64,000 nucleotides of DNA from Patescibacteria group bacterium (GTDB taxonomy: Bacteria > Patescibacteriota > Minisyncoccia > UBA6257 > GWB1-50-10). Within the stretch, counting starts at the first letter, position 1. Each line of letters starts with the position of its first letter. Of the stretch, positions 4,917 through 61,394 are shown one piece after another. The notes below the pieces were generated by a model. The model did not search any database. It had not been told where the DNA came from and was given only the letters and a program-made list of their open reading frames with translations. The stretch is taken from NCBI GenBank assembly GCA_023474215.1, contig JAMCYI010000001.1, positions 2,836 through 66,835 of the forward strand, written 5' to 3'. Both the position numbers and the translations under genes were made by a program.

Positions 4917-5178
4917 GTGTTCCTAACAAATAAACCCGACCTTTTTCTCTGGCCGGGTTCGACAAACTGCTCTGTGTGAAAACACAAAGCTCCCAGCCAG
5001 TGATGCCTTGCGGCACCCATACAGGTTTCCCCGTATGACCAGTAACGGAGCTCTGACTAGGAGCTTTCTATTCGTTACTGGTTTTTTGAACCCTGCCGCA
5101 GGCTTCCCTACGGGTTAGGTCTCATGTTTAGTTGTATGGAGTCAATATTAACACACTGGACAAGGAGGGCAAGACAAC

Positions 5179-6803: not shown

Positions 6804-8072
6804 TTGGAAATCCTCTCCATCGGCAAAGCCGCCTCCCGCTCAGGAAGCGTCGAGTTCGGCATCAAATCTCCCGACCGGCGGCACCACATGTACCTCGTGG
6901 GCCAGACCGGCACCGGCAAGTCCACCTTCCTCAAGAATGCGGCGGTTCAAGACTTGCGGGCTGGGCGCGGCCTTGCGGTAATCGATCCTCATGGCGCGCT
7001 TGTCGAGGACATCCTGCGGTTCATTCCCAGGCGCCGGACGGGCGAGGTCGCGTATTTCAATCCGACTGACGCCGATCATCCCGTCGGCCTTAATATCCTC
7101 GAGGCGAGGAGCGAGAACGAGCGGAACCTGGTCGCCTCGTCCCTCATCTCGATTTTCAAATATCTCTGGAAGGACTTCTGGGGTCCTCGGCTGGAGCATG
7201 TTTTCCACAATGCAATCCTCGCCCTAATGGACACGCCGGATTCGACGCTCCTCAGCGTGTACCGGATGCTTGCCGACGACGCCTTCCGCGCGAAGGTCGT
7301 CGGGAGGGCGAAGGACCCGGTCGTGAGGTTCTTCTGGGAAGAGGATTTCGAGAAATATCCGGCGCGGTTCAAGAAGGAAGTGACGTCGCCGATCCAGAAC
7401 AAGATCGGGCAGCTCCTCACGAACAGCTGCATTCGGAACATCGTCGGGCAAGCCGAGAGCACGCTCGACCTGCGGTTCCTGATGGACAACCAGAGGATTC
7501 TCTTTGTAAATCTCGCCAAAGGCGTGATCGGCGAGGATAAGGCAAACCTCCTAGGATCGGTGCTCGTGACGAAACTGTACCTCGCGGCGCTCGAGAGGCA
7601 GACAGTGCCGGAGGACAAGCGCCGGGATTTCTACCTTTATATCGACGAATTCCAGAATTTTTCGACGGAAGCGTTTCCGTCGATGTTGTCCGAATCCCGC
7701 AAGTACCGGCTGAACCTGATTCTGGCGCACCAGTATCTCCGCCAGCTCCCGGAGAGCGTGCGCCACGCCGTCTTCGGGAACGTCGGGACGCTCTCCGCCT
7801 TCCGCGTCGGCGGGCTCGACGCAGAGGAGCTGGCCAAGGAATTCCAGCCGGACTTCGAGCGGGACGATCTCACCCATATCGAGAACTACCGCTTCTGCAC
7901 AAGGCTCATGATCGACGGCAAGCGGTCAAAGCCGTTCTCGGCTGAAACGCTCCCGCCTCCCCGCCTGCGGGGCGACGAGGCGGACGCCGAGACGGTCATA
8001 AGGATTTCTCAAGAGCGTTTTGCTTCAAAACGTGAAGACGTGGAACAAGCGGTCGAAAAATGGTTCGCCTGA
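6804..8072 (+). CDS. TrwB/TraD/VirD4-family P-loop ATPase, paralog of 607..1986 (apparent TTG start)
   Basis: GQTGTGKST...VIDPHGAL, YLYIDEFQNF, RKYRLNLILAHQ; roughly 40% identity to first copy by eye. Confidence 0.7.
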   Translation: MEILSIGKAASRSGSVEFGIKSPDRRHHMYLVGQTGTGKSTFLKNAAVQDLRAGRGLAVIDPHGALVEDILRFIPRRRTGEVAYFNPTDADHPVGLNILEARSENERNLVASSLISIFKYLWKDFWGPRLEHVFHNAILALMDTPDSTLLSVYRMLADDAFRAKVVGRAKDPVVRFFWEEDFEKYPARFKKEVTSPIQNKIGQLLTNSCIRNIVGQAESTLDLRFLMDNQRILFVNLAKGVIGEDKANLLGSVLVTKLYLAALERQTVPEDKRRDFYLYIDEFQNFSTEAFPSMLSESRKYRLNLILAHQYLRQLPESVRHAVFGNVGTLSAFRVGGLDAEELAKEFQPDFERDDLTHIENYRFCTRLMIDGKRSKPFSAETLPPPRLRGDEADAETVIRISQERFASKREDVEQAVEKWFA

Positions 8073-24052: not shown

Positions 24053-24079
24053 AATTCCAAAATCCAAATTCCAAATCAA
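24053..24079. repeat. AAWTCCA heptamer tandem repeat (about 3.5 units) directly after gyrB stop, followed by hairpin ccaaatcaa/ttgatttgg
   Basis: direct reading. Confidence 0.7.
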
Positions 24080-24216
24080 TGAGGGTTGATTTGGTATTTG
24101 ACATTTGAGCTTCGACATTATAGTATTGAATTGTTCCGTAGATAGCAGGGGCCGCAAGGCTTAATCATCCTGCCGAGGAAGAAACTTCTGGGAAGTCGGT
24201 CGATTCTTCTTGAAAA

Positions 24217-24238
24217 CTGCGGAAACGCAGATTTTTTG
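24217..24238 (+). promoter_or_regulatory. rplJ leader hairpin ctgcg-gaaa-cgcag + TTTTTTG (attenuator/L10-leader-like)
   Basis: GNRA hairpin + T-run 5 nt upstream of rplJ ATG. Confidence 0.5.
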
Positions 24239-24242
24239 TTAT

Positions 24243-24740
24243 ATGAAAACAAAAGCGCAAAAAAAGGAACAAATCGAAACGGGAAAAGGGGAACTCGATA
24301 AAAGCGAAACCGTCGTCTTCACCGATTTCACCGGCCTCTCGGCGAATGATTTGAACGTGTTTCGAAAACTCGTCCGGGGACTCGGGGGCGTCATGGTCGT
24401 CATGAAAAAGCGGCTCTTGACCCTCGCGCTGAAAGAGAAAGGCATCGACTTCGATGCAAAAAAACTCGAAGGCCAAGTCGGCGTCGTGTTTTCGCCGAAA
24501 GATTCGGTCGAGACCGCAAACGTCGTCTATCAATTCGGCAAACCGTTCAGAGCAAAAAATATCTTCAATATTTTGGGCGGCTTCGAGGTCAAAGGGAAGC
24601 GGTTCATGGAAAAAGCGGAAGTCGAAACGCTCGGTCAGCTTCCGTCACGCGAAGTCCTCCTGGGACAGCTTGCGTTCATGCTCACCGTTCCGATCAAGAA
24701 AGTTCTTTTCGTTTTGAACGAAAAGGCAAAACAACAATAA
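24243..24740 (+). CDS. rplJ: 50S ribosomal protein L10
   Basis: [32 protein letters not shown]. Confidence 0.9.
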
Positions 24741-45481: not shown

Positions 45482-47579
45482 AAGGAACGTCCCCAAAAAG
45501 AATATCGATCCCATTTTAGTTGACGTCAAGAAACCGAACTTCAACTACGACCATCTCCGAAAATTCGAGATCGTCAATCTCACGAAGATCCCCAAGCAGG
45601 AAAAGAGGAACGCGGTTTCGATCGCAAAAAGGGTCCTCCTTGCCGTTTTCATTGCGGGGATCGTGGGATTCGTTTCGTTCATCGGCATCACCTTCGCGAA
45701 TATCCGGCAAATGAAGGCGACCGTCGAGGAAAGTGGGGCGCAAATCATGCAGAATTTCAGTTCATCGGTCGGAGCCCTCAAAAACTTCGAGCCGTCGACC
45801 GCCGCAACGTATCTCGAGAACAACTCGAAATCGCTCGCTAACATCGACAACCTCGTGACAAAGGGGTTCGGCGAAAACATCGTGCAAACGGTGAGCAATT
45901 TCGTCCCCATCATCAAACAAGCGTTCGGTCTTGTAGGACAAGTGTCCAATTTGAACGGGGATCTTTTGGAACTTACCCAAACGATCGCCGATCTCCAAAA
46001 GAACGGATTTAAAGACTTCAAAAGCAACGGCCCCGCACTTATTGCAGACCTCGAAAAACTCCACACCCTCGTCCAAAATCTCAACAGCGAGGCGGGGGGC
46101 ATCAAGAATACCACTTCGTATCTCAAGAGCATGTCGAGCTTTTTCGGAGGATTGGACCAAAATGTCGGAAACGAATATTTGAAGTACAGTTCCGAGCTCT
46201 ACGGCTGGGATAACGTGCTGGTTCAACTGACCAACTTCCTGAACTCCCCGACACCGAAGCATATTGCCGTTCTCTTCCAAAATCCGGCAGAAATACGGCC
46301 CGGCGGGGGATTCATCGGAAGCTACGCGGATGTGAGCGTCCAAAACGGCCAAATGCAGGGCATGGACGTGCGAGACATTTACGATCCGGACGGCCAGCTT
46401 GCCATTAAGGTGATACCGCCCGAAGAATTGCAGGCGACGACTCCCAATTGGGGCGCCCGCGATTCCAACTGGTTCTTCGACTTTCCAACGTCGGCAAAAA
46501 CGACACTGAACTTCTTGAACGCTTCAAAAATGTACTCCGACAAGGGGATCCGCTTCGATGCGGCGATCGCCATCAACATCAACGTCGTAAACTCCCTCCT
46601 TGATGTTACGGGACCTATCACATCGCCCGGATATCCAACCGTCGATTCGTCGAATTTTCTCGAAGAAGTTCAGCGCGAGACGGAGCAGAGCGCGAACCAG
46701 CGAGCCGGGCAGCCGAAAAAAATCCTGCAAGTTCTGGCGCCGATCCTCATGGAAAAGTTGGATGCGCTCGACAGCGATCAATCGAAAGCGCTCATCGATG
46801 CCCTCAAAAATGACCTTCAAAAGAAGGATATCATGTTTTACTCCACCGATCCCACAATCGAGAATTTCCTCGACTCGAACGACGTGAATGGCGGCGTTTA
46901 CCAGCTCCCCGACGGCTTTTGGGGAAACTATCTCGCAGTCGTGAACGCCAACGTTGCCGGCGGCAAGAGCGATGCGTTCGTAAAGGAGGCGGTGAACGCT
47001 CATGTCGACATTGACACGAGCGGGAACACCTTTACGGATGTAACCGTCACGAGACAGCATACCGGCAACACTCAAACGGATCCATGGTGGCGCGCCACGA
47101 ACAATGATTTTCTACAGATCTTCACGGAACCGAACTCGAGCCTCGTCGACGTGACCGGCGAAAACACGCGAAAGAAATACTCAACGCTCGACTATGCCAA
47201 TTCCGACTACGCCGTGAATCCGGATCTCGCTGCCATTCAAGCGAACGAGGTGTTCCTTACCAATTTCAACACGTGGCAGCGATCCGAATTCGGCAAGAAC
47301 GTTTTCGGAACCTGGCTTTTCACAAAGGCGGGGACGACCTCCACGCTCACCATGCGTTACCAAACGAGCTATAACGGCATCAAGGTTTTGATGCCCGGCC
47401 AAAAATACACGTTCGTCTTCGAGCGGCAGTCGGGTGTCCAAAACTCACTCGATTTGACCATCAACGCTCCCTTCAAATATTATTGGGTAGAATCCAATTC
47501 GCCGGTCTATACGTATCACACAGACGACCCGGATAAGCGGATCATCATAACCCTCACGCTTGGGTATCAAAGTCAATAA
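45474..47579 (+). CDS. large membrane-anchored extracellular protein (701 aa), possibly DUF4012-like, in glycan cluster
   Basis: N-terminal TM; IRPGGGFIGSYADVSV motif; gene context. Confidence 0.45.
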   Translation: MAKRNVPKKNIDPILVDVKKPNFNYDHLRKFEIVNLTKIPKQEKRNAVSIAKRVLLAVFIAGIVGFVSFIGITFANIRQMKATVEESGAQIMQNFSSSVGALKNFEPSTAATYLENNSKSLANIDNLVTKGFGENIVQTVSNFVPIIKQAFGLVGQVSNLNGDLLELTQTIADLQKNGFKDFKSNGPALIADLEKLHTLVQNLNSEAGGIKNTTSYLKSMSSFFGGLDQNVGNEYLKYSSELYGWDNVLVQLTNFLNSPTPKHIAVLFQNPAEIRPGGGFIGSYADVSVQNGQMQGMDVRDIYDPDGQLAIKVIPPEELQATTPNWGARDSNWFFDFPTSAKTTLNFLNASKMYSDKGIRFDAAIAININVVNSLLDVTGPITSPGYPTVDSSNFLEEVQRETEQSANQRAGQPKKILQVLAPILMEKLDALDSDQSKALIDALKNDLQKKDIMFYSTDPTIENFLDSNDVNGGVYQLPDGFWGNYLAVVNANVAGGKSDAFVKEAVNAHVDIDTSGNTFTDVTVTRQHTGNTQTDPWWRATNNDFLQIFTEPNSSLVDVTGENTRKKYSTLDYANSDYAVNPDLAAIQANEVFLTNFNTWQRSEFGKNVFGTWLFTKAGTTSTLTMRYQTSYNGIKVLMPGQKYTFVFERQSGVQNSLDLTINAPFKYYWVESNSPVYTYHTDDPDKRIIITLTLGYQSQ

Positions 47580-49486
47580 TGGAAACCATTCGAAATTTTT
47601 GCATTATCGCTCATATCGATCACGGTAAGAGCACGCTTGCCGACCGCCTTCTCGAGATCACGGGGACGGTCGAATCGCGGCGCATGCATGCCCAGTATTT
47701 GGATCAACTCGATCTCGAGCAAGAGCGGGGGATCACCATCAAAATGGCCCCCGTCCGGATGGCATATCATCCGGAATTAGGAATTTCGAATTTCGAATTT
47801 CGAAACAAAGAAAACAATCCTGCTGCCGCTCAAAATTCAAAATTAAAAATTAAAAATTCAGGTTCAGAATATATTCTGAACCTCATAGATACTCCCGGCC
47901 ACTCCGATTTCGCGTACGAAGTATCGCGATCGTTGAACGCCGTCGAGGGCGGCATTCTTCTTGTCGACGCGACACAGGGGATCCAAGCCCAGACACTTTC
48001 CAATTTCAGAGCGGCAAAAGCGGCCGGCCTCACGCTCATCGGGGCGATCAATAAGATCGATCTTTTCAAGGATCGGAACGACCACGCACTTGCCGAACTC
48101 CGAAAGGAAGTGGCGGAACTCCTGGGGATAGGGCCGGAGGACGTTTTCATGGTTTCAGGGAAGACCGGCGAAGGTGTCGAGCAACTTTTGTCGGCTATTA
48201 TCGAAAAGGTTCCGCCGCCAAAAGTCGCAAATTCAAATTTCAAATTTCAAATTTCAAATTTGGGCCGCGCTCTTATCTTCGATTCGTTCTACGACGATCA
48301 TAAAGGCATCGTCGCTTCCGTTCGCGTTTTCGAGGGAGCTTTCGAACGCGAAGACCCGATCGTTCTTGCAGCAACGGGCACCGAAGTAAAGATCAAAGAG
48401 GTCGGTTACTTCTCGCCTCAGCCGAAAGCAGCTCAATCGATCAAGAAAGGCGAGATCGGCTACATTGCGACCGGCATCAAAGACACGAGCAAAGTAAAGA
48501 TCGGCGACACCGTTCTCATGATCCCCAAACCTTACACCATCGACCCTCAAACCCTCGCTCTTCCCGGTTACCGGGAGCCGAACCCCGTGGTTTTCGTTTC
48601 TTTTTATCCCGAAGATGCCGACGACTATGAAAATCTGAAGAGGGGACTTGAAAAACTCCATTTGAACGACTCATCGCTCCATATCGAGCCGGACCAGAAT
48701 GAGATTCTGGGGAGGGGATTCAAAGTCGGATTCCTCGGCAAGCTTCACTTTGAAATAACCGCGGAGCGCCTCGAGCGCGAGTTCGATGCGCGGGTCGTAA
48801 GCACGTTCCCATCCGTCGTCTACAAGATCGTCAATAAAGGAAAGGAAGAATTCATTACAAAACCGGAAGATCTGCCGAACGAATACGACGAGATTTGGGA
48901 ACCGCTCGTCCGCATCAATATCCTCGTTCCTTCGAATTACCTTGCAAGCGTCCTCTCGCTCCAGAATAAATTCCGGATCGAGGATCTGACGACGAAGACG
49001 GTCGTGAACTCCATCGATATCGAAGCGATCATGCCTCTTTCCGAACTCGTGAGCGATTTCGACGACCAACTGAAATCGGCAACGTCCGGCTATGCTTCGT
49101 TCAGCTACGAATTTTTGGACTATCGCAAGGCCGACGTCGTGAAAGTGGATAATTTCGTCGCGGGCGAGATCATTCCGGGCCTTTCGCGGTTCTTCCCTCG
49201 GGAAAGCGTGGAGCGTGAAGCGCGGAAGATGGTGGAAAAACTAAAAATTACCCTTCCGAAACAGCAGTTCCCGCAGGCGCTCCAAGCGAAGATCTCGGGG
49301 AAGGTCATCGCACGCGAGGATATTCCGGCCATGCGGAAGGAACTCGGCAATTTCGGCAAAAACGGCGGAGACCGGACGCGAAAAATGAAACTCTGGCAAA
49401 AGCAGAAAAGGGGGAAGGAAAAACTGAAAGCAATGGGAAAGGTGCGGATCGCGCCGGAGGTATTCAAGGAATTAATTAAGAAATAA
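47579..49486 (+). CDS. lepA: elongation factor 4 (LepA) with two in-frame repeat-derived insertions
   Basis: NFCIIAHIDHGKSTL, DTPGH; C-terminal LepA domain; insertions at about 47772-47884 and 48227-48262. Confidence 0.95.
   Translation: METIRNFCIIAHIDHGKSTLADRLLEITGTVESRRMHAQYLDQLDLEQERGITIKMAPVRMAYHPELGISNFEFRNKENNPAAAQNSKLKIKNSGSEYILNLIDTPGHSDFAYEVSRSLNAVEGGILLVDATQGIQAQTLSNFRAAKAAGLTLIGAINKIDLFKDRNDHALAELRKEVAELLGIGPEDVFMVSGKTGEGVEQLLSAIIEKVPPPKVANSNFKFQISNLGRALIFDSFYDDHKGIVASVRVFEGAFEREDPIVLAATGTEVKIKEVGYFSPQPKAAQSIKKGEIGYIATGIKDTSKVKIGDTVLMIPKPYTIDPQTLALPGYREPNPVVFVSFYPEDADDYENLKRGLEKLHLNDSSLHIEPDQNEILGRGFKVGFLGKLHFEITAERLEREFDARVVSTFPSVVYKIVNKGKEEFITKPEDLPNEYDEIWEPLVRINILVPSNYLASVLSLQNKFRIEDLTTKTVVNSIDIEAIMPLSELVSDFDDQLKSATSGYASFSYEFLDYRKADVVKVDNFVAGEIIPGLSRFFPRESVEREARKMVEKLKITLPKQQFPQALQAKISGKVIAREDIPAMRKELGNFGKNGGDRTRKMKLWQKQKRGKEKLKAMGKVRIAPEVFKELIKK
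47780..47884. repeat. (GAATTTC)3 - spacer - (AAAATTM)4 - 24-bp perfect palindrome ggttcagaatatattctgaacc, in-frame inside lepA
   Basis: direct reading; adds ~27 aa between G2 and G3 regions relative to E. coli LepA. Confidence 0.85.
48227..48262. repeat. (AAATTTC)n heptamer tandem repeat in-frame inside lepA
   Basis: aaattcaaatttcaaatttcaaatttcaaattt. Confidence 0.85.
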
Positions 49487-60206: not shown

Positions 60207-61394
60207 ATGAATCTTTATTCGAAACTTCCGGAAACTCCGGGCGTCTACATCATGAAAGATGCGGCGGGGAAAATCCTCTATATCGGCAAGGCCGTCAATG
60301 TGCGGCGGCGGGTTTCGAGTTATTTCACGCGACCGCATGATGCGCGGATCGAAGGGCTCGTCCGGGAGATCAAAACGATCGATTTCAAGAAGACCGATAC
60401 GGGAATTGAAGCACTGATCCTTGAATCCGAGCTTATTAAAAAACATCAACCTCCCTTCAACATCAAGGAAAAGGACGACAAGAGCTTCTTATACGTCGAA
60501 ATGACGGGAGAAAGGTTCCCACGCATATTTTTAGCGAGAGGGAAGGACAAACCGAACGGCAAACGGTACGGTCCTTTTACATCGGCCTCAAGCATTCGCG
60601 AGGCGCTCCGGATCATAAGAAAAATTTTCCCCTACGCGACGCACCCCGAGCCGAAAAAACCGCAGGCGAGGGCCTGTTTCGACTACCAAATCGGTCTCTG
60701 CCCGGGAACGTGCATCGGTGCGATCTCAAGGAAGGACTATTTGAAAAACATCGAGAACATCGAACTCTTCTTCGGAGGCAAAAAGGAACGGATCATAAAA
60801 AACCTCGAGCGCGAGATGAAAACGGCAAGCAAGGCATTGAACTTCGAGCGGGCAGGAGAATTGAAGCGCCAGCTTTTTGCCCTCCAGCACATCCAAGACG
60901 TAGCAGTCATCTCTGATGATAAAATCCAAAATCCAAATGACAAATTCAAAAAAACGACGCGAATCGAAGGGTACGATATCTCAAATATCAGTGGAGCTTC
61001 TGCTGTTGGATCGATGGTCGTTTTCACGAACAACGAACCGGACAAAAAAGAGTATCGAAAATTCAAAATTAAAACGGTTTTTCAGCCGAACGATTTCGGC
61101 ATGCTTCAGGAGGTCCTGGAACGGCGCCTCAAAAATAACTGGCCGTTGCCCGACCTTTTCCTTATCGACGGCGGCAGGGGACAGGTGAGCGCCGTCCGCG
61201 GGATCCTTGGCAAAGCAGGGATCAAAATTCCGGTCATCGGCATCGTGAAGGGCCCGGAACGAAAGCGAAACGACATCATCGGAAAAATCCCGTCATTCAC
61301 CGATCTTCAGATCCTCATAAAAGTACGAGACGAAGCTCATCGCTTCGCCATTACGTACCATAAAAAGGTGAGAAGCCGCGAATTTATGAATTGA
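60207..61394 (+). CDS. uvrC: excinuclease ABC subunit C, short form (GIY-YIG + UVR + endonuclease; no C-terminal HhH)
   Basis: GVYIMKDAAGKILYIGKAVNVRRR GIY-YIG; UVR motif ERAGELKRQLFALQ. Confidence 0.8.
   Translation: MNLYSKLPETPGVYIMKDAAGKILYIGKAVNVRRRVSSYFTRPHDARIEGLVREIKTIDFKKTDTGIEALILESELIKKHQPPFNIKEKDDKSFLYVEMTGERFPRIFLARGKDKPNGKRYGPFTSASSIREALRIIRKIFPYATHPEPKKPQARACFDYQIGLCPGTCIGAISRKDYLKNIENIELFFGGKKERIIKNLEREMKTASKALNFERAGELKRQLFALQHIQDVAVISDDKIQNPNDKFKKTTRIEGYDISNISGASAVGSMVVFTNNEPDKKEYRKFKIKTVFQPNDFGMLQEVLERRLKNNWPLPDLFLIDGGRGQVSAVRGILGKAGIKIPVIGIVKGPERKRNDIIGKIPSFTDLQILIKVRDEAHRFAITYHKKVRSREFMN
60921..60955. repeat. heptamer-periodic A-rich repeat (AAAATCC AAAATCC AAATGAC AAATTCA) in-frame in uvrC
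   Basis: direct reading. Confidence 0.7.

Follow-up and report, generated by a model that had tools for sequence, protein, structure and literature searches.

Hairpin-forming DNA inside conserved genes has been described from several systems. The intervening sequences (IVSs) of ribosomal RNA genes are extended hairpins in conserved genes, sometimes with a small open reading frame (ORF) in the loop, and they are excised from the RNA by RNase III, which leaves that RNA fragmented. Quasipalindrome template switching and P-nucleotide addition at hairpin-opened ends give rise to insertions that are exact inverted copies of adjacent sequence, each a one-off mutation of a few nucleotides. Rickettsia palindromic elements (RPEs) are also known from RNA genes. 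Within housekeeping ORFs, RPEs are palindromic repeats that lie in frame and are translated as extra peptide that the protein tolerates (reviewed in PMC10969869). [quoted passage not shown] Among nucleases, PD-(D/E)XK homing enzymes such as I-Ssp6803I have been listed, as has the PDDEXK_3 family, the latter as of unknown function (PMC3424549). Here we describe a hairpin cassette that lies in frame in lepA, the gene for elongation factor 4, in a 64,000-nucleotide stretch of a genome from the Patescibacteria, or candidate phyla radiation (CPR) (contig JAMCYI010000001.1; hereafter the window). The reading we adopt, and consider moderately probable, is that this insert is a miniature form, lacking the nuclease, of a hairpin cassette that is homing-like, specific to one site and spreads horizontally, and that it is carried by its host as a tolerated disordered loop.

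Anatomy of the lepA cassette

The lepA ORF is uninterrupted and remains open through the insert (Table 1). Its homologues carry the GTP_EFTU, EFG_III, EFG_C and LepA_C domains, and solved LepA/EF4 chains also match it. A first-pass annotation, made from the letters of the window, had described an in-frame insertion rich in inverted repeats in the LepA G domain, adding some 27 residues relative to E. coli LepA, and we found all of the sequence features it described at the place it gave for them. The insert takes the place of the 4-6-residue turn between strands beta2 and beta3 of the G domain, for a net gain of about 28 residues; against LepA of solved structure from Aquifex (2ywe), it is residues 66-93, about 28 extra, that have no counterpart. 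AlphaFold gives residues 67-95 a predicted local distance difference test score (pLDDT) of <50 and places them between strands 58-63 and 98-104, and on this model the insert is probably an extended beta2-beta3 connection forming a disordered surface loop. The peptides predicted from the cassette include ISNFEFR and LKIKNSGSEYILNLIDTPGH.

Three hairpins, A, B and C, are nested around and within the insert. Hairpin A, at the left junction, had been missed in the first pass: 8 bp join a left arm, TCCGGATG (47754-47761), that belongs to the conserved (V)RM codons to a right arm, CATCCGGA (47768-47775), that spells the opening insert codons HPE, across the loop GCATAT. Hairpin C, at the right junction, is the palindrome that the first pass had reported. 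It is indeed 24 bp long and perfect, although the string printed for it was the 22-bp core only, and it cannot be taken as inserted DNA throughout. Its left arm (47860-47871) comes from the last codons of the insert, GSE, and its right arm (47872-47883) is made of native (Y)ILNL codons, so that half of the palindrome, unremarked until now, is conserved host coding sequence. Hairpin B lies between the two. Its parts had been given as three GAATTTC units, a 25-nt spacer and four AAAATTM units, and Tandem Repeats Finder (TRF) recovers both arrays with the spacer between them; what that account lacked was that these arrays, now decayed, pair with each other as the arms of a single internal hairpin. 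The arms of hairpin B are short tandem repeats, in the window the heptamers GAATTTC and AAAATTM, and they mismatch as C.A once per heptamer unit.

The layout can be written U-U'-B-D'-D, in which U (..VRM) and D (YILNLID) stand for conserved codons native to the gene and U' and D' are the insert ends, each the reverse complement of the flank it adjoins, giving the junction hairpins A and C. Because the hairpins are laid out in this way, the insert can be described as the reverse complement of the upstream flank, followed by a variable hairpin, followed by the reverse complement of the downstream flank. The internal inverted repeat is imperfect (33 nt, 76%), and the actual termini of the insert pair with the host flanks, not with each other. 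No target-site duplication (TSD) is present at the insert, the flanks being repeated as inverted and not as direct copies; only the two native Tyr codons recur. When we folded the segment from VRM to TPGH of 64 lepA genes with RNAfold, the mean z-score was -4.0 for cassette-bearing genes and about 0 for empty alleles. The 24-bp palindrome occurs once in the window, where shuffled sequence is expected to give 0 matches, and tandem RAATTTC heptamers are confined to lepA (6 matches against 1.15 expected, with 0 of 100 shuffles reaching 6). The search for palindromes and heptamers that the first pass had recommended thus turned up no further copy outside lepA in the window.

Table 1. The lepA gene of the window, its cassette and its second heptamer site. 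Positions are counted from the first letter of the window.
Feature	Position	Strand	Basis or remark
lepA (elongation factor 4) ORF, 635 amino acids, cassette host	47579-49486	+	ORF list; LepA/EF4 matches
Hairpin A, left junction, TCCGGATG-GCATAT-CATCCGGA	47754-47775	+	8 nt, 100% complementary; RNAfold
Insert proper, codons H64-E97 (HPELGISNFEFRNKENNPAAAQNSKLKIKNSGSE), 34 codons	47768-47869	+	Alignments with relatives and solved LepA
Hairpin B, internal	Arms 47771-47803 and 47830-47862	+	33-nt arms, 76% complementary, 26 nt between
(GAATTTC)x3.4, T-rich left arm of hairpin B	47781-47804	+	TRF, 100% match
25-nt spacer, loop of hairpin B (AACAAAGAAAACAATCCTGCTGCCG)	47805-47829	+	Sequence
(AAAATTC/A)x4 array	47830-47860	+	TRF; A-rich right arm of hairpin B ends at 47862
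Perfect 24-bp palindrome, halves AGGTTCAGAATA and TATTCTGAACCT, hairpin C, right junction	47860-47883	+	Repeat search
Second site, (CAAATTT)x5, linker between G domain and domain II (ANSNFKFQISNL)	48228-48261	+	TRF

One lepA site in many Patescibacteria

The first-pass annotation had raised two simple explanations for the insert, an error of assembly and a fixed, lineage-specific loop, and neither holds. The exact protein of the window lepA is present on two long contig records, and the same or a nearly identical cassette recurs in independent assemblies of other samples and lineages (P0003 on 14 contigs; L002 and L030; L004 and L107), which rules out an assembly artefact. As for a fixed loop, the closest relative (L003, protein P0002) has a lepA that is 98% identical in DNA and 93% identical at third codon positions, yet it has no cassette; a plain 6-residue turn stands in its place, and some 20 nt on each side of the turn differ too. 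A far more distant lepA (L004, protein P0003), 69-74% identical overall and 40% at third positions, carries an insert that matches that of the window at 100/104 positions (96%) with no indels. Recent horizontal transfer is the likely cause, because the cassette is lacking at 98% lepA identity and shared at 69-74%. Other pairs of genes give the same picture, with identities in the insert and in the adjoining G-domain DNA of 0.93 versus 0.68, 0.86 versus 0.63, and 0.89 versus 0.72. L002 is a deletion derivative that has lost 36 nt, in frame, from the A-rich right arm of hairpin B, and L005 has a version with the A-rich arm alone. On a quick neighbour-joining tree of 121 LepA sequences, presence of the insert requires at least 23 gains or losses. 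By these comparisons the cassette moves between lineages and replaces the turn region.

The site itself is occupied far beyond these relatives. The 120 best LepA homologues are Patescibacteria wherever the source gives a name, and about 34 of them have an insert at exactly this position, with very different contents: each lengthens the protein by 8-52 residues, or by about 150 if it includes a nuclease, and their peptides are diverse and of low complexity. When one genome from each GTDB species was scanned for the 18-nt core of the palindrome, at least 119 loci were returned. About 60 of these are, among the matches listed, lepA at this site, and the rest are scattered chance matches in other taxa. 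The named lepA loci come from Kaiser-, Sacchari-, Roizman-, Davies-, Levy-, Nomura-, Jorgensen-, Yanofsky-, Sungii-, Chisholm-, Vogel-, Zambryski- and Campbellbacteria. Hairpin C is thus found in frame at the lepA site in at least about 60 species of Patescibacteria; its longest perfect palindrome is 34 bp (L099), and its median stem is 12 bp, versus 3 bp in lepA without an insert. Of 57 insert-bearing lepA genes, 20 (about a third) show a clear hairpin A.

The outer positions of hairpin C vary between species yet continue to pair (CAAATTC/GAATTTG, CAGATTC/GAATCTG, CAAGTTC/GAACTTG and CAGGTTC/GAACCTG). Five pairs have changed on both sides, in 40 such cells, for a covariation score of 0.132 versus 0.082 (0/500 shuffles). 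When pairing of the insert end with its own flank was compared by permutation with pairing to the flanks of other species, p was 2e-4 for hairpin C and about 0.003 for hairpin A. Alleles that encode VEEY keep the palindrome with other codons (GTTGAGGAATA and TATCCTCAAC as its halves). Insert-free lepA genes encode YILNLID with many synonymous codons and form no hairpins, and lepA of non-Patescibacteria has a loop of 16-17 residues and no hairpins. Mismatches in hairpin C are G.T in 11 cases and A.C in 14, with no excess of G.T, and because G.T is no commoner than A.C the junction complementarity looks like a property of the DNA and not of selection on the sense RNA. Hairpins are also present in lepA alleles that were found without the palindrome as bait (L132, L128, L170); a scan of metagenomes met mostly non-Patescibacteria lepA, so it serves as a negative control with 3-4 informative insert-bearing loci. 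Taken together, the alignments establish a nested-hairpin cassette that lies in frame at one lepA site in many Patescibacteria, has a patchy distribution and has arms that covary with their flanks.

Of 61 inserts, about 60 keep the frame and contain no stop codon, and the other two frames are full of stops. The sole exception, on the minus strand of L051, has one in-frame TGA in the insert and no other TGA in that lepA frame; an error in the sequence, loss of gene function or recoding might each account for it. While the cassette is plainly in frame and its loop is predicted to be disordered, its translation and the tolerance of LepA for it are what we infer from this conservation of frame, and the encoded loop would be tolerated rather than useful.

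Several other ways of accommodating the insert were considered and rejected. An intein is excluded by the lack of Hint blocks or a nucleophile in what is a 34-residue, low-complexity and predicted disordered segment (HPELG...NSGSE, then Y98). A group I or II intron, a ribozyme or another known structured RNA finds no matching Rfam model, and the inserts are kept in frame; at a permissive E-value, Rfam gave only chance hits in 47400-48500, to MIR390 and AsrC, far below threshold. Translational bypassing or programmed frameshifting came to mind since AAATTTC fits the X XXY YYZ pattern, but no break interrupts the ORF and every insert considered keeps the frame. If the hairpin loops were the points of a precise excision, the two beta strands would be left without a turn to join them. 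A phase-variable contingency locus does not fit arrays of 3-5 units in which close relatives differ by in-frame blocks or concerted substitutions and never by frameshifting counts. Within the insert, a scan for promoters gave no match. Read on the minus strand (47883-47860), the palindrome with GAATTTTTAATTTTT after it fits the pattern of an intrinsic terminator in the present orientation only, and we treat this match as incidental.

Nucleases and heptamer repeats at this site and others

Some LepA proteins carry a nuclease exactly at the site of the cassette. A GxxExxY PD-(D/E)XK domain of about 121 residues (PF13366), with the PD..E(L/I)K motif intact, is embedded there in P0010, P0015, P0027, P0063, P0117 and L040. 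In the DNA of L208, which encodes P0010, the nuclease ORF occupies the loop of a large hairpin B with tandem-repeat arms, with hairpins A and C on either side; in the L040 allele hairpin C is present and hairpin A is not clear. P0028 (L209) is a mini version that has hairpins A and C of the L208 type and a short B built of the same arm units. In two pairs of proteins the nucleases are 83% and 77% identical, versus 65% and 64% for the host LepA. The PF13366 nuclease is the only ORF inside these allelic full-length versions, and no transposase is found in them.

The nuclease also occurs outside lepA. Free-standing P0125 (L210, 2453-3026) lies between ligA and ribD in the loop of an inverted repeat of 47 nt, 85% complementary, made of tandem units of about 8 nt. 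A free-standing GxxExxY ORF of 138 residues (L061, 84-500) is directly upstream of a cassette-bearing lepA; that lepA also has a long hairpin insert of the GC type at the second site, and the locus contains masked N runs. In a HMMER scan with a free-standing member, many of the sequences nearest to it proved to be domains lying inside housekeeping proteins. The in-frame hosts (P0155-P0245) are RecG, GatB, asparagine synthase (AsnB), glycosyltransferases of the GT4 family, RtcB-like and transketolase-like proteins, and LepA, and where the genomes have names they are Patescibacteria. The position in RecG is constant, between DEQHRFGVxQR and SMTATPIPRT, and the peptides that flank the module are of one kind (..TQIDAD.. 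on the left, ..PRxSA.. on the right). One RecG gene (L211, 1501-4122) has a 9-bp hairpin, AACCAGCGC-CAA-GCGCTGGTT, at the left junction. One GatB fusion is named just 'GxxExxY protein' by NCBI. These comparisons show nuclease-bearing and nuclease-less versions sharing the lepA site, and a nuclease-in-hairpin module standing in frame in other genes. Searches with tblastn using the fusion proteins were swamped by their LepA portions; the pure nuclease domain, run against the window and all loci, matched only L040, L208 and L061.

Heptamer hairpins, too, are found beyond the cassette. In a Zambryskibacteria metagenome-assembled genome (L082), the RNase P RNA gene (7402-7901) measures 500 nt against a 367-nt model, and includes a hairpin with heptamer arms, some 100 nt long (7672-7768), whose arm matches the lepA insert of the same genome at 27/30 positions. 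The heptamer type is therefore multicopy in at least one genome, as far as this match goes. The second, shorter heptamer insertion that the first pass had noted in the window lepA is also real. Linkers at this site 2 have a modal length of 8 residues and a second mode of 15 with heptamer-type peptides, to which the window belongs; its 7 additional residues, 21 nt, equal three heptamers over the modal linker and appear as a 7-residue gap in the alignment with Aquifex 2ywe. Between the window and L003 every unit of the array has changed alike (CAAATTT versus CAAATTC), and on this comparison the site 2 repeat evolves in concert. Some 40 nt upstream of the array (48190-48225) are 73-83% identical to L003, where identity elsewhere is 97-100%, which suggests a second small recombination patch.

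A third loop of LepA, before LPGY (site 3; L123 at about 4350, L099, L032 and L022), has inserts in some lineages, of the heptamer type (TKLKTQNEKLKIQNEKLKIKE) or of the GC type (ADSRGLHADQRG...PRESASS). In the window, a looser pattern of two RAAWTYC units adds an intergenic site, a site in uvrC and a match in a DedA-like gene that is probably due to chance. The uvrC gene (60207-61394) has an AT-rich island (60909-60954) with (AAAATCC)x2.4 in frame, encoding DDKIQNPNDKFKK; the island is similar to heptamer inserts of the IQNPN type that other lineages have in lepA, and may be a third in-frame heptamer insertion of the window. The intergenic site, between gyrB and rplJ, has (AATTCCA)x3.4 at 24053-24076, then a small hairpin, just upstream of the L10 leader that Rfam places at 24118-24246. 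Elsewhere in the window, 5002-5121 on the minus strand is a strong match to the LOOT RNA (RF03000, 88.6 bits).

Origin of the cassette and its place among known systems

If the cassette is homing-like, its spread would begin when a GxxExxY PD-(D/E)XK nuclease starts break-induced gene conversion. The nuclease would be supplied by full-length versions, in which its gene occupies the hairpin B loop of this lepA site, and the window copy would be non-autonomous. After arrival, a copy may decay by in-frame deletions and heptamer slippage, and the junction palindromes would be kept by templated correction at the level of DNA, or by regeneration, and not by selection on the mRNA. That the ends of the element pair with host codons at lepA may point to an unusual step of joining or templating through hairpins during integration. 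It is possible, though we put the prospect below even, that the cassette belongs to an unrecognised class of selfish elements in Patescibacteria, hairpins armed with tandem repeats and optionally equipped with a GxxExxY nuclease that home into surface loops of housekeeping genes and are not spliced, as RNA or as protein. LepA, RecG, GatB, AsnB, glycosyltransferases and RNase P RNA would be the targets of such elements, which would survive by staying in frame.

A number of observations weigh against this account. The window has no other copy of the heptamer hairpin, and no GxxExxY gene is present in its 64 kb or in the flanks of most loci; because no such gene is nearby, mobilisation in trans, or transformation followed by recombination, must be assumed. 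The arms in the window are AT-rich heptamers with no visible homology to the arms, richer in GC, of those versions that carry the nuclease, and the heptamer and nuclease versions may be separate classes of element that share a permissive or targeted site. The nuclease insertion in the RecG gene of L211 has no clear right-junction hairpin, and the U-U'...D'-D rule may be specific to lepA. Most lepA loci were baited by the palindrome core, so that the invariance of the core is ascertained, and the unbiased sample, with hairpins in 5/5 protein-selected and about 2/3 metagenome alleles, is small. Low-complexity DNA can inflate identity values, and the LepA tree is only a quick neighbour-joining one.

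The main rival would have the cassette arise where it stands, from endogenous slippage and template switching: a permissive loop would gain heptamers in threes and quasipalindromes by intrastrand template switching, which would also go on correcting the inverted flank copies, and patchiness would follow from frequent deletion of unstable palindromes and ordinary homologous recombination. Much in the data suits it. The arrays are prone to slippage, site 2 has added exactly three units, and the unit differences between 98% identical strains are concerted; L002 and L005 are in-frame deletion derivatives; each junction arm is the perfect reverse complement of the flank beside it, without G.U bias, as templated copying would yield; there is no second copy in the window; and two further variable loops of LepA have similar low-complexity inserts. 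We nevertheless regard it as unlikely, since it leaves unexplained the 96% identity of inserts in lepA genes that are about 70% identical and saturated at third positions, along with the similar pairs, and equally the recurrence at this site of an in-frame nuclease better conserved than the host gene, and why in L082 the same heptamer hairpin sits in the gene for RNase P RNA as well as in lepA. A nucleic-acid structure selected in the lepA mRNA or DNA, whether for translational pausing during G-domain folding, transcript stabilisation, protein binding or antisense termination, seems less plausible again. The covariation of the stems and the strongly negative folding z-scores would be expected of one, the nucleotide conservation of TATATTCTGAA exceeds what the protein needs, and the minus-strand palindrome with its T-rich run has the form of an intrinsic terminator. 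Against it, the cassette is dispensable, being absent from the strain with 98% identical lepA and from many sister lineages; hairpin B is hypervariable and, in the window, decayed, G.T pairs are not above A.C mismatches, no Rfam family matches, and the antisense terminator arrangement is found only in the orientation of the window and not in the commoner opposite one.

The first-pass annotation had favoured a miniature inverted-repeat element. A classical MITE would be a non-autonomous transposon with terminal inverted repeats that was moved by an insertion-sequence transposase and happened to land in frame in lepA. We give this very little credence. The internal inverted repeat (33-nt arms, 76%), the small size, the AT-richness and the absence from a close relative are what a MITE would show, but there is no TSD, the flanks being inverted and not direct copies; the element has a single copy in 64 kb; members of its family, from several candidate phyla of Patescibacteria that have names, invariably occupy a single codon position in a single gene; and the ORF associated with them is a PD-(D/E)XK nuclease, with no transposase. 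That the insert is an artefact of assembly or binning, or a spliced element such as an intein or intron, we consider scarcely credible. AT-rich low-complexity repeats and palindromes can go wrong in assembly; set against this are the identical protein on two long contigs and the same cassette in assemblies of other samples, and, for splicing, inserts that are in frame and stop-free and show neither an intein nucleophile or Hint blocks nor an intron model.

Should the homing-like account be correct, these cassettes would join inteins and introns as a third means by which selfish DNA driven by a nuclease persists within essential, conserved genes, and one that does without splicing of RNA or protein. 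It would give the large GxxExxY/PDDEXK_3 family a testable role, and would account for low-complexity segments in CPR proteins ('EIRNSKFEIRN', 'FEFRASNFEF') and for misannotations such as GatB under the name 'GxxExxY protein'. The flank-complementary junction hairpins offer a handle on DNA joining and correction in organisms not yet culturable alone. Cassettes of this kind distort alignments of marker genes such as lepA, and could mark gene flow among CPR bacteria at the level of strains. In the literature on in-frame palindromic or heptamer elements of CPR bacteria or Patescibacteria, on GxxExxY/PDDEXK_3 and on lepA, we found no description of such cassettes, and the family is apparently undescribed.

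Among known systems, RPEs offer the closest likeness in form: the cassette, too, is a palindromic element in frame in a housekeeping ORF that is kept in the predicted protein, and the heptamer hairpin in the RNase P RNA gene of L082 extends the likeness to RNA genes. Unlike RPEs, which are dispersed in about 44 copies per genome in unrelated genes, the cassette is tied to one codon position of lepA and a few other loops; its ends are the reverse complement of flanking host codons, its arms are tandem heptamers and its allelic full-length versions contain a nuclease ORF. The host phylum differs as well, and by its description the cassette is set apart from RPEs. With homing endonuclease genes and their mini forms it shares a precise site in a conserved gene, occupied and empty alleles, a patchy distribution, conservation beyond that of the host gene, and nuclease-bearing and nuclease-less versions at one site. 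The window copy has no internal endonuclease ORF, which is found in the allelic versions elsewhere. Unlike the homing elements that are inteins or introns, it has no Hint domain and no intron RNA model and stays in the mature ORF, and unlike known homing elements it is associated with a nuclease of the GxxExxY/PDDEXK_3 family, placed inside the loop of a repeat-armed hairpin, whose cleavage of the empty site is putative.

Other systems match in single respects. The insertion in the RNase P RNA gene of L082 resembles an IVS, whereas in lepA the element is hosted by an mRNA whose reading frame runs on through it. MITEs and REP/BIME repeats differ in that the cassette has no TSD, no dispersed copies in the window and no transposase or REP-associated tyrosine transposase (RAYT), and is strictly site-specific. 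The inverted-copy pattern at both junctions is like that of template-switch products, but the arms are 8-17 nt long, flank a larger cassette and occur in at least about 60 species. The cassette is, then, akin in its working to RPEs and to the mini forms of homing elements and probably a member of neither family, set apart by its site specificity, its junction hairpins with host codons, its tandem-repeat arms and a nuclease of an uncharacterised family, and there is a fair chance that what is seen here is a small part of a class of homing elements, non-splicing and so far unrecognised, in CPR bacteria.

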